The position numbers and the translations under genes were made by a program. A stretch of DNA of 64,000 bases, taken from NCBI GenBank assembly GCA_001029735.1, contig CP011213.1, positions 332,288 through 396,287 on the forward strand. Direction: 5' to 3'. The notes below the pieces were generated by a model that had not been told where the DNA came from, made no database searches, and saw only the letters and a program-made list of their open reading frames with translations. Source of the stretch: Berkelbacteria bacterium GW2011_GWE1_39_12 (GTDB lineage Bacteria > Patescibacteriota > UBA1384 > UBA12157). Below are positions 38,310 through 43,547 of this stretch, piece after piece; within the stretch, counting starts at the first letter, position 1; the number at the start of each line of letters is the position of its first letter.

Positions 38310-39497
38310 ATGAATATTTTGGTTATTCACGAGACCGAATATGTTAAAAAAGTAGTCTATGAATTTCAAATAATTCCTGAACTCCTGGCTTCAAATGGCC
38401 ATCGGGTTTTTGTAATCGATTATCCGATGGCTTGGAAAAAAAGTAATTTATTTGATTTAGGCAGCTTCAAAACAGAATATTACTTGAATGTTAAAAAAGC
38501 CAATAAGAAAAAGGGGGTAACTCTAATTCGCCCTGGCATTATTAAAATTCCGGGAATCAGCCGCTTATTTGCCTTTTTTTCTTATTTTTCGTTAATTAAA
38601 AAAACAATAAAAAAATATAAAATAAATCAAATAATTCTTTATTCTGTTCCAACCAACGGCTTACAAACACTTTATTATGCCAAAAAATATAAAATCCCAG
38701 TGCATTTTCGTATGCTCGACGTCTTGCATCAACTGGTGCCATCTAAATTACTTTCTTGGCCAACTTATTTGATGGAGAAATATATCTATAAGCGGGTAAC
38801 TGAAATTACTGCCATTACGCCTCGACTGGTAAAATATGCCATTAAGATGGGGGGCGACCCTAAAACCACCTCTTATCTACCGACTGGATCAGATGCTGAT
38901 CTTTTCTTTCCCCAGAAAAAAAATATAGATCTTATTGAGAAATTTTGGATCAAAAAACAGGATAATGTTGTCCTGTTTGCGGGTACTCTATATAATTTTT
39001 CAGGTTTAGATATCTTAATAAAATACCTTGGAGAGAATCCGAAATTGAAGCGAAACCTTAAGATGATTATTGTTGGACACGGTGAACAAGAAGGTTTGCT
39101 AAAGAAAATGATTAAAGAATATAACCTCGATAAAAATGTTTTCTTGACAGGTTTTATCGATTATTTGGAACTCAATACATATATCAACTTAGCAGATATA
39201 TGTATTAACTCATTTCAAAAAAACAACATCACCAATATTATTTTTCCTAGCAAAATTTACCAATATTTAGCCTGCGGTAAACCTGTTGTCGCCACCAAAC
39301 TAAAAGGGCTTTTAGAGCTGTTTCCTGTTGGGAACAAGAATGTTTATTATTTCAACCTTAAAAAACCTGGAGAGTTTTTCTATTTAATCCATAAAATAAA
39401 GCACCAAAAAATAAATATTAAAAATCAATCACTTCAAAAAATTATGACAGTTATTGAAGAAAAACTAGAACAAGTTAACCGGCGAGTCGGCAATTAA
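38310..39497 (+). CDS. glycosyltransferase family 4
   Basis: C-terminal ...IFPSKIYQYLACGKPVVAT... Confidence 0.7.
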   Translation: MNILVIHETEYVKKVVYEFQIIPELLASNGHRVFVIDYPMAWKKSNLFDLGSFKTEYYLNVKKANKKKGVTLIRPGIIKIPGISRLFAFFSYFSLIKKTIKKYKINQIILYSVPTNGLQTLYYAKKYKIPVHFRMLDVLHQLVPSKLLSWPTYLMEKYIYKRVTEITAITPRLVKYAIKMGGDPKTTSYLPTGSDADLFFPQKKNIDLIEKFWIKKQDNVVLFAGTLYNFSGLDILIKYLGENPKLKRNLKMIIVGHGEQEGLLKKMIKEYNLDKNVFLTGFIDYLELNTYINLADICINSFQKNNITNIIFPSKIYQYLACGKPVVATKLKGLLELFPVGNKNVYYFNLKKPGEFFYLIHKIKHQKINIKNQSLQKIMTVIEEKLEQVNRRVGN

Positions 39498-40088
39498 CAT
39501 AAAAACGTAGATCAAAATTGCCAACATCATACCATATATCAGCACTCTGAGGGACGAATATAGAAATCTCTTTCTTGGGATGTTTGAGTAACAGGTTATA
39601 TTATAGACTTCGGTAATGTAGGCATCATAAATCTGCCGTTCGTCGTCTAGCGCTTTGTGAATTTCTTTACGATACTCATCTAAATCCATTGCGTTGATAT
39701 GATGATGGTAAAATAAACTTTCCTTCTGGCCTTTTTTTGTAGTGGTGTGAGGCGGTTTTAAGGCAACAATAGCCAGAAAAAGTGAGAGGATTAATGCACT
39801 AAGCAAGACCCAAAAAACCGGATTGCCGTCGATATTATCGCGGAAATAAGTAACCAACAAAACAATCAAGGCTGAATTAAACCCGATGACAATATTCGAC
39901 CGGACATCAAGCATGTTGCGGATTTCCGTTTGTTTATCTAAAAGTGAGTCCATAAATGTGACTTTACTTAAAGTATCGATTTCGTTTTCAACCCGCTCAA
40001 CTTCACTTTCAATTTTTTTGTCGATGGCTAGATCTTTTTGATCTAATTCAATAGTATCTTCATTCATTCCACTCCTTTTATTTGTCAT
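39465..40088 (-). CDS. hypothetical membrane protein (N-terminal coiled/soluble region, 2 central TM + C-terminal TM)
   Basis: 207 aa; architecture only. Confidence 0.4.
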   Translation of the reverse strand: MTNKRSGMNEDTIELDQKDLAIDKKIESEVERVENEIDTLSKVTFMDSLLDKQTEIRNMLDVRSNIVIGFNSALIVLLVTYFRDNIDGNPVFWVLLSALILSLFLAIVALKPPHTTTKKGQKESLFYHHHINAMDLDEYRKEIHKALDDERQIYDAYITEVYNITCYSNIPRKRFLYSSLRVLIYGMMLAILIYVFMLIADSPVNLF

Positions 40089-40187: not shown

Positions 40188-40952
40188 TCAACTTTTTACT
40201 ATTCCTGCCCCCAACCAAGCGAGTTCAAAAATAGCTCGTTGCGTTTTAGCAATCGATTCCGATTCGATGATTACCGCCAAGAGTTCACCTTGTAAAGACA
40301 TGATCGCCACCTTGTTACCATAAATATCGATCTCGTTAGTAAAAGGAAATTTGTCGGCCGGAACAAGACGAGTCTTGCGTAAATGTTCTCTGTTGTGAGA
40401 AGCATATTCTCTGTTAATCGGCGCATCAGGTGCGATATTTCTAGCAGTGATTCCTTTAGCTACTCTTTTACTGAGATATTCTATTACAAATTCCGGTTCT
40501 TCGGAATACAAACCTTCAGCCGTTGCATAAGCGACGATTTCACTTCCTGATTCCTGGTTTAAAGTGTCTTCCAAAGCGAGTTTAATTCCTTCAACACCTT
40601 TGAAAAACTGAACCTTTGGACTTTGGCCGGAACTTTCTAAAGCTCGTAGCTCTGGCATAATTTCTTCAAATTCACGTAGTTTTTCTGTTTGGATTCTTTT
40701 AAATTGCTCAATTGAAACGCCGCTGTATTTTTTAACGCTAATGTCTTCTACCAATGAGAAAAACCCCATCTTCACCAAGTCCTCAACCACGTCATAAACA
40801 AAGGTTCTTTGAATCCCTGATTCTTTGGCGATCTGACCCACAGTGGCTTCGCCTAATTTTAAACAAGCCAAATAAATTACGGCTTCTTGCGGTTTCAATC
40901 CGAATTTCTCCAATTGTTTGATAAATTTTTGGTTGTTATTTAAATCATTCAT
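40188..40952 (-). CDS. TrmB-family transcriptional regulator
   Basis: N-terminal wHTH ...LKPQEAVIYLACLKLGEATVGQIAKESGIQRTFVYDVVEDL... Confidence 0.7.
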   Translation of the reverse strand: MNDLNNNQKFIKQLEKFGLKPQEAVIYLACLKLGEATVGQIAKESGIQRTFVYDVVEDLVKMGFFSLVEDISVKKYSGVSIEQFKRIQTEKLREFEEIMPELRALESSGQSPKVQFFKGVEGIKLALEDTLNQESGSEIVAYATAEGLYSEEPEFVIEYLSKRVAKGITARNIAPDAPINREYASHNREHLRKTRLVPADKFPFTNEIDIYGNKVAIMSLQGELLAVIIESESIAKTQRAIFELAWLGAGIVKS

Positions 40953-41999: not shown

Positions 42000-42039
42000 T
42001 ATATGACACTTCCCCGTCGGATTTTATCCGGCGGGGATT

Positions 42040-42146
42040 TTTTATTAGAGATCGTAAGGGAACAAAAGGGAAGAGAATATAAGGGAGAAAACGAAAGGGG
42101 AAAAACAGATGGGATACATAAGAGGAAACAAAAGAGAATCAAAAGC
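42040..42146. repeat. purine-rich (GA) flank; with the CT-rich flank at 42690-42800 forms an imperfect inverted repeat around the four-helix-bundle gene
   Basis: shared 14-nt perfect IR aagagaatcaaaag (42124-42140 vs revcomp of 42709-42723) plus repeated aaaggg/gaagag words. Confidence 0.6.
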
Positions 42147-42668
42147 TTATTTATTCTTATTATCACTTTTATCTAAAATATCTTTTAGATACTCATCAAA
42201 ATCTTTCTCAATTTTAGCTCTATTTTTGAGTTCTTTTCGAGCCATATCATTGCCACTAACCGTCTTTTCTCTATAACCCTTTTCTTCCAAACTTTTAATC
42301 TGTTTTTGCAGCATTTTAGCTTCGCCAACTCCCATTTGTATCCCTTTTGCACACCCTTTTGGATCCCCAATCTCTCCCTTTTGGCAATACTTGAAATCCC
42401 CTATGAGTTCTTCCAGAGATCCGGCCGAAAATCCTAGGAACGATATATATTCTTTGGTCGAAGTCCTCAAATACCCTTCTTCGATATTCCTGACTACACT
42501 TCTGGCCGAACGAATCATCTGGTCTTTTAAATCGGTTAAATATTGACCGGTTTTTGGATGCTTTGACGGAAAAGATACAACGAATTTTTCAGTTAATTCA
42601 AATATATCGTTGGCTTGCTGCCAGGTTAACAAATTGCGATATCCCAAGGGGTTCGAATGGGATAACAT
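42147..42668 (-). CDS. four-helix-bundle protein ('23S rRNA intervening sequence protein' family)
   Basis: LGYRNLLTWQQANDIFELTEKF...RSARSVVRNIEEGY...GSLEELIGDFKYC matches the conserved IVS-protein pattern (L.VWQKA..L...IY...P..E...L..Q.RRAA.SI..NIAEG...EEL). Confidence 0.7.
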   Translation of the reverse strand: MLSHSNPLGYRNLLTWQQANDIFELTEKFVVSFPSKHPKTGQYLTDLKDQMIRSARSVVRNIEEGYLRTSTKEYISFLGFSAGSLEELIGDFKYCQKGEIGDPKGCAKGIQMGVGEAKMLQKQIKSLEEKGYREKTVSGNDMARKELKNRAKIEKDFDEYLKDILDKSDNKNK

Positions 42669-42770
42669 AAGGGTCTCCTATGCGAATTAAAAATTAAATA
42701 TTCCCCTTTTGATTCTCTTCTGATTTTCCTTTTGATCTTCTTCCCCTTTGTCACCCTTTTGATTTCCCTT

Positions 42771-43547
42771 TTATTCCACCTTCTTAGTTCTCCCGTGTAA
42801 AACGGTATCCCATAAGATCCGCAAACCACGTGGAATAAAAAAGAAGGCATATTTAATAATCGCTAAAATCGTCCATTTATCAGACATCGCCCGGGTTTGA
42901 TGTGTTTCGATGGCTTTACGAAACTCGGCGGCTGTTTCCCCTTCAAATAAGGTATAACCCTTCCCAATTGCTTCAAGAATATGAGCGTCGGAATTACCTA
43001 ATTCCGCCTGCAAAATAGTTTCGTTAATCAAGGCGGCCCTGATATTTTCGTCGCCAAGAGTCGGAGTGGCGTTAATTACTTCAATGCCATCTAAATCTTT
43101 CCCAACCCTCATCAATGTTTTTAAACCAATGCCGTTCATCATTGGGCGGTCTCTGTTATTCCATCTGGACTGTTCGAACGGATGACAAGAAACAACCAAG
43201 CCACCTTGGGCATGCACTCTTTTAATTACCTCGGCGGCATCCAAGTTGGCCTCAATCGGCTCTTTTAAGAATAAACCCAAGAGATGGCCTTGAATCGAAG
43301 TTATTTCTTCACCTAAAACGAGATCAAAGCTGTATTTTTTCTCTTTCACCAATTTTTCAGCTTCAAAAGCCCCGGCCATGGTATCGTGATCGCAAATAGC
43401 AATAACATCAAGATTGGTCTGATTTTCAACGTAATCTAAAACTTCCGGCACTGTTGGACGACCGTCAGAATTCACGGTGTGGATGTGAACATCCGCCGTC
43501 CCCAACTGAGTAAATTTTTCAATCGCCCTAATACCTTTTTTATTCAC
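42771..43547 (-). CDS. PHP-domain metal-dependent phosphoesterase
   Basis: ADVHIHTVNSDG...AICDHD... PHP motifs. Confidence 0.7.
   Translation of the reverse strand: MNKKGIRAIEKFTQLGTADVHIHTVNSDGRPTVPEVLDYVENQTNLDVIAICDHDTMAGAFEAEKLVKEKKYSFDLVLGEEITSIQGHLLGLFLKEPIEANLDAAEVIKRVHAQGGLVVSCHPFEQSRWNNRDRPMMNGIGLKTLMRVGKDLDGIEVINATPTLGDENIRAALINETILQAELGNSDAHILEAIGKGYTLFEGETAAEFRKAIETHQTRAMSDKWTILAIIKYAFFFIPRGLRILWDTVLHGRTKKVE

Follow-up and report, generated by a model that had tools for sequence, protein, structure and literature searches.

A free-standing four-helix-bundle (PF05635) gene of a Berkelbacteria genome is bracketed by inverted arrays of short tandem repeats

What is a gene of the rRNA intervening-sequence (IVS) family doing outside any rRNA gene, between two flanks of opposite base skew? 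The question is raised by a 64,000-nt stretch of the genome of Berkelbacteria bacterium GW2011_GWE1_39_12 (contig CP011213.1, positions 332,288 to 396,287; the whole stretch is referred to as the window), in which a minus-strand gene for a four-helix-bundle protein of the family PF05635 stands between a purine-rich and a pyrimidine-rich flank. Tens of thousands of genes are annotated as "four helix bundle protein" or "S23 ribosomal protein" without known function, and the origin and spread of the rRNA IVSs that carry an open reading frame (ORF) have been a standing question since the early 1990s. The window holds a free-standing PF05635 cassette, its ORF bracketed by inverted arrays of short tandem repeats. 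Judging from the loci compared below, an ORF within inverted tandem repeats characterizes much of the PF05635 family, and the rRNA IVSs share this layout.

Related loci are labelled L001 onward, and those from the Candidate Phyla Radiation (CPR) form a set of about 100, encoding homologues of 33-83% identity. The parts of the cassette in the window are the following.

42147 to 42668, minus strand: coding sequence of the 173-aa four-helix-bundle protein (PF05635/TIGR02436, Avd-like) with an extra C-terminal helix, from profiles, AlphaFold2 (AF2), Foldseek and the ratio of nonsynonymous to synonymous substitution rates (dN/dS)
42675 to 42679, minus strand: Shine-Dalgarno (SD)-like AGGAG, 6 nt 5' of the ATG, read from the sequence; inside the loop of the predicted stem, 26 nt from its inner end
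42706 to 42793, minus strand: 5' arm, a tandem array purine-rich in the mRNA sense, about 6-7 units of about 12 nt with the consensus CAAAAGGGnAAT, from base skew, Tandem Repeats Finder (TRF) and cofolding
42047 to 42145, minus strand: 3' arm, a tandem array pyrimidine-rich in the mRNA sense, about 8 units, from base skew, TRF and homology to the 3' arrays of L097 and L119
42132 to 42145, no strand assigned: gene-proximal arm of a perfect 14-nt inverted repeat, aagagaatcaaaag on the plus strand, from a repeat search
42706 to 42719, no strand assigned: partner arm of the same inverted repeat, cttttgattctctt on the plus strand, from a repeat search

The assignment of the gene to the IVS family, made in the original prediction from the sequence alone, is borne out by the profile scores of the 173-aa protein, 53.4 bits for PF05635 (23S_rRNA_IVP; cutoff 33.8) and 55.2 bits for TIGR02436 ("four helix bundle protein"; cutoff 24), by a profile match to 2GSC (E = 1.4e-7) and by the fold. 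The AlphaFold model, a monomer predicted with 52 homologues as input, consists of a four-helix bundle and one long C-terminal helix (pLDDT 88.5). Its best structural matches in Foldseek were XCC0516 (2GSC), BT_0352 (2RLD) and Avd (4DWL, 8UB7), a protein of diversity-generating retroelements (DGRs), with target-normalized TM scores of 0.88-0.90 to 2GSC and 0.84 to Avd 4DWL. By analogy with 2GSC, 2RLD and 4DWL, the protein may form a homopentameric barrel. The best matches in both sequence and structure are thus free-standing proteins annotated "four helix bundle protein" or "S23 ribosomal protein" (TIGR02436; 2GSC, 2RLD). PADLOC gave no defence-system match for the protein. Public data contain an identical protein, annotated as that of a Candidatus Berkelbacteria (CPR) groundwater genome. 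An Rfam scan of the 64 kb found no rRNA gene and only three tRNAs, in agreement with the predicted absence of rRNA nearby.

Against L097, which has the same gene order as the window (PHP, the four-helix-bundle gene, small genes, TrmB and PycTM), the gene showed a dN/dS of 0.10 at a dS of about 1.1, a value at which synonymous sites are saturated. The protein is 83% identical between the two loci and the neighbouring proteins 61-69%. Because dN/dS is low, dS is high and the protein is better conserved than its neighbours, this comparison argues that purifying selection maintains the gene, which is functional and long resident at its site. The SD is kept as GGAGG in L097, L119, L120 and L030.

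The flanks had been described as GA-rich and CT-rich on the mRNA, and the skew is real. Positions 42042-42152 are the sole stretch of the 64 kb in which 80-nt segments reach at least 80% purine on the plus strand, and 42692-42804 the sole stretch in which they drop to 20% purine or less. No second copy of the gene or of its flanks was found in the 64-kb window, in line with the expectation that the flanks are not widespread low-complexity DNA. They are, however, not amorphous GA/CT tracts but tandem arrays of an approximately 12-nt unit with an AAGGG/CCCTT core. On the 5' flank TRF reported a period of 12 with 5.9-6.8 copies (42700-42782), on the 3' flank a period of 12 (42085-42145), and inside the gene a period of 11 (42330-42367). 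The 5' arm is placed between the stop codon of the upstream PHP-domain gene and the ribosome-binding site of the four-helix-bundle gene, while the 3' arm begins 1 nt past the stop codon of the latter and runs up to a terminator hairpin. The perfect 14-nt inverted repeat that had been noticed has one half in each of the two arms. The 5' arm does not fit the canonical G-quadruplex motif, its loops being 7-38 nt long.

When a phased array was defined as at least three AAGGG/CCCTT-type cores at a spacing of 8-15 nt, four arrays were found in the 64 kb, all of them at the four-helix-bundle gene, compared with 0.29 per window in block shuffles. Two of them lie within the coding sequence or across its start codon.

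42646 to 42674, minus strand: CT-type phased cores across the start codon, gaCCCTTatgttaTCCCATtcgaaCCCCTT, from a core search
42331 to 42381, minus strand: intragenic phased GA-type array on the sense strand, encoding the turn between helix 3 and helix 4, CQKGEIGDPKGCAKGIQMG, from a core search and TRF

The order of the four arrays in the mRNA sense is therefore GA (5' flank), short CT (start codon), GA (intragenic) and CT (3' flank). In many homologues the ATG directly follows CCCTT or CCCAT. Selection at the nucleotide level on the intragenic AAGGG cluster was considered and rejected: the Gly codon at the invariant NIEEG motif is GGG in only 18 of 79 sequences, and K-G codon pairs were unremarkable in a codon test. 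As far as these codon comparisons go, the intragenic arrays are accounted for by conserved KG/GxxxG peptide motifs.

The long imperfect stem around the ORF that had been proposed is predicted by cofolding of the two flanks, which gave -74.8 kcal/mol with 72 intermolecular pairs (26 GC, 41 AU and 5 GU). Composition-preserving shuffles gave -47.2 +/- 4.6 kcal/mol (z = -5.9), and 0 of 300 were as good as the real flanks. The stem is seen in both the minimum-free-energy and the centroid folds of the whole 781-nt transcript, with the ribosome-binding site and the ORF enclosed in its loop. Among 53 genes of the window, the four-helix-bundle gene alone showed flank-to-flank complementarity at z <= -3, a threshold that is conservative for short arms.

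Is this arrangement peculiar to the window? With 12 conserved rRNA probes, no rRNA gene was found at or beside any of 98 related loci. In the CPR loci the AAGGG/CCCTT core pentamer shows a 7.6-fold enrichment up to 200 nt from the gene, at least three cores are present in the flanks of 53 of the 80 non-redundant loci, and the core-to-core spacing peaks sharply at 10-11 nt over a flat background. In the rest of these loci, about 300 kb of background, phased arrays are nearly absent; the phased motif is a trait of the CPR clade. The CCCTT/AAGGG core is kept in homologues with identities of 33-100%, whereas its orientation and copy number are variable. Some loci have CT arrays upstream only and others CT upstream with GA downstream; some have GA-CT hairpins confined to one flank and others direct CT arrays in both flanks; a further arrangement is that of the window, GA upstream with CT downstream. 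Flank-to-flank complementarity reached z <= -3 in 13 of 76 loci of this clade.

Some arrays of the clade are very long. Downstream of the gene in L077 (3091-3400), 28 phased CT units follow four GA units, and long arrays are present also in L075, L058, L061 and L041, those of L075 being repeated GA-array/CT-array hairpins on both sides of the gene. At L058, L073, L077 and L087 the sense GA arrays are read through as KG-rich C-terminal tails (e.g. NKGQNKGNNKG), so that the end of the ORF drifts into the array. In one CPR lineage (L039, L040, L043 and relatives), the gene lies together with a GA-CT hairpin inside the conserved recA-recX pair.

Outside the CPR clade, 20 distant PF05635 loci spanning 31-73% GC were compared, seven on plasmids (six cyanobacterial and one of Gemmatirosa) and 13 on viral contigs. 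Judged partly by eye, 15 of them (4 of 7 plasmid and 11 of 13 viral-contig loci) carry tandem repeats upstream of the ORF and the complement downstream. The repeat unit is typically 7 nt, on plasmids often G3N4, and it varies by locus (GGGAACA, GGCAGAA, GGGAAAA, GGGTGTA, GTAGGGA, GGAAGAA and GTGGTAC) while the arms stay complementary. A unit that changes between loci with its complement retained amounts, at the sequence level, to covariation across loci. In 14 of the 15 two-armed loci, as in the window, the arm rich in purine or G precedes the ORF, and where the arms can be aligned the 3' arm usually starts 0-2 nt past the stop codon. A flank-to-flank duplex at z <= -3 was found in 10 of 19 loci.

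Two further features of the distant loci may be recorded here. The upstream arms of L099, L104 and L106-L108 are (G3N4)n repeats (e.g. GGGAACA, GGGTGTA and GTAGGGA) whose coding strand matches the canonical G-quadruplex motif; their C-rich complement is downstream. The 5' untranslated regions of the cyanobacterial-type loci L100, L102, L105 and L109-L111 contain a repeated "acttcaaactt" between TATAAT and ATG, distinct from the heptamer arms.

The cassette resembles the rRNA IVSs of Coxiella and of Leptospira (helix 45) in that a PF05635 ORF would lie in the loop of a stem formed by complementary termini. In the Coxiella IVS, two or three purine-rich tandem heptamers (GACAGAT), variable in number between strains, are located just upstream of the PF05635 start codon, and the 28-bp terminal stem has mapped RNase III cuts (PMC4990558). 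A further likeness to the window is thus the set of short, purine-rich tandem repeats, variable in copy number, that separates the start codon from the 5' arm of the stem (PMC4990558). The differences are also clear. An IVS replaces the tip of a 23S or 16S helix (helix 9, 25 or 45), whereas the window cassette is outside any rRNA gene, as the original prediction had said; in terms of architecture, its reading of an IVS-like cassette is right. The Coxiella stem is near-perfect over its 28 bp, whereas the arms in the window are about 90-100 nt of a 12-nt unit; and the Coxiella ORF is decaying and its SD is removed by cleavage, whereas strong purifying selection acts on the window ORF, which has a good SD in the loop. 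Insertions with 23S_rRNA_IVP ORFs are known also in rRNA genes of CPR bacteria (PMC11270868).

With Avd the protein shares the four-helix-bundle fold of the pentameric barrel family, but it has an extra C-terminal helix of about 55 residues and is only about 11-13% identical in structural alignments. The Avd pentamer binds an 11-bp RNA stem-loop via flipped-out bases (bioRxiv 10.1101/2023.10.23.563531), a precedent for recognition of an imperfect duplex. The cyanobacterial-plasmid members of TIGR02436 have the same inverted flanks, purine 5' and pyrimidine 3', as the window; their units are mostly of 7 nt, compared with 10-12 nt in the CPR clade, where the arrangements are far more varied. Free-standing PF05635 genes, IVS stems and Avd are already known, while the bracketed layout around non-rRNA copies may be undescribed: in the literature, of which our coverage was incomplete so that a prior description is possible, we found no account of IVS-type inverted tandem-repeat arms at non-rRNA copies, nor, with the same incomplete coverage, of phased arrays of 10-12 nt in the CPR clade.

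How the arms might act depends on the transcript that contains them, and two neighbouring features are needed at this point.

42771 to 43547, minus strand: PHP-domain gene (PF13263/PF02811), 5' of the four-helix-bundle gene and probably co-transcribed with it
42011 to 42037, plus strand: intrinsic terminator hairpin of a convergent 169-aa gene, with its T-run on the plus strand; it bounds the 3' arm and is conserved in L097, L119 and L121

The original prediction had both the PHP gene and a strong terminator abutting the flanks. The hairpin does bound the 3' arm, but the T-run on the plus strand assigns it to the convergent 169-aa gene, and the PHP stop codon (42771-42773) together with the last approximately 8 codons is inside the 5' arm rather than next to it. 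Since no promoter-like or terminator-like site was found between the PHP and four-helix-bundle genes, co-transcription of the two is probably the simplest reading.

We tentatively favor, at a level of confidence a little short of probable, the view that the arms pair in the PHP-four-helix-bundle transcript and act post-transcriptionally, as an RNase III-type site, as a ligand of the pentamer, or as both. In this scheme the four-helix-bundle gene would be co-transcribed with the upstream PHP gene, and the arrays would pair in the common transcript to form an imperfect duplex of about 72 bp with the ribosome-binding site and ORF in its loop. RNase III-type processing at the duplex might free the mRNA of the cassette from the host transcript and leave SD and ORF intact; or, by analogy with Avd, the duplex might be a binding platform for the presumably pentameric product. 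A post-transcriptional role is suggested because of the experimental precedent of the IVSs, the stem binding by Avd, the covariation of the arms across loci and the fixed polarity; the location of the purine- or G-rich arm upstream in 14 of the 15 two-armed loci would in particular tie the function to the transcribed strand.

A number of observations weigh against this view. The antisense flanks fold about equally well (-73.1 kcal/mol). Foreign GA or CT arrays combined with the arms of the window gave -60 +/- 11 and -63 +/- 6 kcal/mol, compared with -74.8 kcal/mol for the own pair, an excess of only about 12 kcal/mol over unrelated arrays; since foreign arrays pair almost as well, the stability of the stem is largely a by-product of two opposed arrays of one unit family. 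The mismatches of the arms show no excess of sense-strand G-U types (52 vs 45). As a strand-specific signature of RNA, the equal duplex energies of the two strands and these mismatch counts were uninformative. The close pairs L064/L065 and L112/L114, compared for compensatory changes, differ by too few substitutions to be informative. No RNase III gene is present in the 64-kb window. Enclosure is a minority layout in the CPR clade, in which many loci have arrays of one orientation. Furthermore, in 15 non-redundant CPR homologues (among them L004, L005, L006, L017, L019, L022-L025, L031, L039, L042, L098 and L121) a TAYAAT box, usually preceded by TG from the last CT unit, starts exactly 12 nt before the ATG without a Shine-Dalgarno sequence. 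This spacing suggests leaderless mRNAs, and the upstream array of these loci would then be promoter DNA, absent from the transcript of the gene. Several cyanobacterial loci with TATAAT between array and gene would likewise have promoter DNA as their upstream array.

Comparison with the orthologous loci adds to these objections. The 3' arm of the window shares homology with the 3' arrays of L097 and L119, from which it differs by whole units gained or lost; the CT array and terminator of L097 can be aligned with those of the window, where two additional unit blocks (22 and 16 nt) are present. L097, L119 and L120 have, in contrast, no 5' GA arm, and L120 is also without the 3' array; in L097 the PHP stop codon is directly followed by two CT units and GGAGG. 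Because these orthologues are without the 5' arm, the enclosing stem is not needed for persistence of the gene. Both halves of the 14-nt inverted repeat are likewise in sequence absent from L097, the gene-proximal half in the 22-nt block and its partner in a block of about 75 nt. On these alignments the enclosing stem is a recent, lineage-specific configuration around a gene that is itself long resident.

The strongest alternative, unlikely in our estimate but deserving serious weight, is that the arrays are iteron-like DNA operators, phased units of 10-12 bp bound on one face of the helix by the oligomeric four-helix-bundle protein or by another factor, and that the RNA stem is incidental. 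Such operators would regulate the promoter of the four-helix-bundle gene itself, a role compatible with the RNA-duplex mechanism preferred above. Iteron- or centromere-type arrays of approximately 11-bp repeats that overlap an autoregulated promoter are known from parC-ParR of plasmid R1, and helix-phased repeats of about 11 bp that adjoin or overlap a small gene's promoter, and that its product might bind, would be a comparable design; the window differs in having no partition motor and in the inversion of its arrays around the ORF. The sharp spacing of 10-11 nt, which is one helical turn, fits an operator, as does the retention of the core in CPR homologues irrespective of orientation and copy number. 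At the 15 loci with a TAYAAT box the last CT unit abuts the box, which makes the array the upstream region of a promoter, and at some loci (L080) arrays in a single orientation are present on both sides of the gene. The absence of strand asymmetry in the mismatches, the equal stability of both strands and the array-aware control, which accounts for most of the stem energy, are all as an operator would have them. In the wider family, however, the unit sequence is not conserved while the complementarity of the arms is kept, and neither the polarity in 14 of 15 loci nor a 3' arm right at the stop codon is expected of symmetric sites. No promoter was found next to either array in the window, and Avd, the sole relative structurally characterized in terms of its ligand, binds RNA.

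The proposal that a mobile IVS-type cassette was captured intergenically touches a second alternative, that the arrays are terminal inverted repeats of a mobile or invertible DNA cassette and that recombination moves or flips the gene. This we consider improbable. The position of the gene varies. In L121 the terminator-plus-array block is upstream, on the sense strand of the gene, with a CT array and a TATAAT box after it, whereas in the window, L097 and L119 the block is downstream and antisense to the gene; with respect to this conserved flank the gene thus has the opposite orientation. It follows PHP in the window and precedes it in L031, and it is placed directly before PycTM in L024, L030 and L120, and between recA and recX or by tRNA genes in other lineages. 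The plasmid relatives adjoin insertion-sequence (IS) transposase and integrase genes, and IVSs were proposed to be remnants of transposition by Burgin et al. 1990, as cited in PMC4990558. Nevertheless, no transposase or recombinase gene is in or adjoining the cassette, no target-site duplication or flanking direct repeat was found, the cassette is single in the window and no empty site was found. The genes of L119 and L121 are only 73% identical in nucleotide sequence, so that the flip is old or the two genes are paralogous. A single inversion between two arrays, worked out by hand, does not turn the L121 arrangement into that of the window. Capture as a recent event is not supported in view of L097, L119 and L120, which share the PHP-adjacent site, L097 doing so at saturated synonymous sites with the gene under purifying selection. 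From these comparisons, the arrays mark boundaries prone to rearrangement; active mobility is not demonstrated thereby.

Only slightly less probable is that the arrays are non-functional by-products of slippage and inverted duplication, perhaps seeded from the KG-rich segment of the gene and drifting since. Units turn over fast, as seen in the 22-nt and 16-nt indels relative to L097 and in the three versus four repeat units of the near-identical L106 and L107. Insertions specific to the window contain the whole of the perfect 14-nt inverted repeat, part of the 5' arm matches the intragenic array at 77% identity over 31 nt, and GA arrays are read through as KG-rich tails in some homologues. Against mere drift, the layout is repeated at genes of one family in different phyla and at 31-70% GC, with the arms still complementary and both the polarity and the position relative to the stop codon fixed. 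Essentially no such arrays are present in the rest of the window or in the locus background, and the 3' array and terminator can still be aligned with L097 despite a dS of 1.1.

That the gene is the Avd accessory gene of a DGR is very hard to credit in spite of the fold match and of the frequency of DGRs in CPR bacteria (PMC10053308), since no YxDD ORF of at least 150 aa, as expected of a DGR-type reverse transcriptase, was found in the 64 kb or within 1.5-3 kb of the gene in about 118 related loci, no reverse transcriptase is near any of the 20 distant loci, and no template/variable repeat pair was evident in the window, where the repeat search around the gene gave only short-unit arrays.

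The purine repeats upstream and their complement from the stop codon onward, the hallmark of the IVSs, are common to CPR, cyanobacterial-plasmid and viral-contig copies, and this shared hallmark links the function of the orphan family with the origin of the IVSs and provides a concrete cis element to examine. A wider interpretation, possible but rather doubtful on present sequence comparisons, is that PF05635 genes across phyla make up one class of self-contained "ORF-in-a-stem" cassettes with co-evolving inverted arrays, the rRNA IVSs being a subset. The arms would then be built of units of about 7 nt in most lineages and of 10-12 nt in CPR, and the IVSs would be cassettes that landed in rRNA helices; the arms would be both a processing signal that spares the host transcripts and the nucleic-acid ligand of the pentamer. 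If true, the orphan "four helix bundle protein" family would for the first time have a testable function, and the IVS elements and the RNA-stem binding by Avd would share an origin.

The remaining observations concern the neighbours of the gene. Its adjacency to PHP is kept in L097, L119 and L120 and is present in reversed order in L031, making five lineages together with the window. The PHP protein has weak N-terminal similarity, far below the cutoffs, to the NCBIfam models for RNase RNM and 3',5'-bisphosphate phosphatase; an IVS-family gene next to that of an rRNA-maturation nuclease would be suggestive, as a predicted link only. On the other side of the gene, the window encodes PycTM, a Pycsar effector-like protein with two transmembrane segments, directly 3' of a TrmB-family regulator (39465-40088 and 40188-40952, respectively, both on the minus strand). 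No cyclase gene is near the PycTM gene of the window. The TrmB-PycTM pair accompanies the four-helix-bundle gene in several related genomes.

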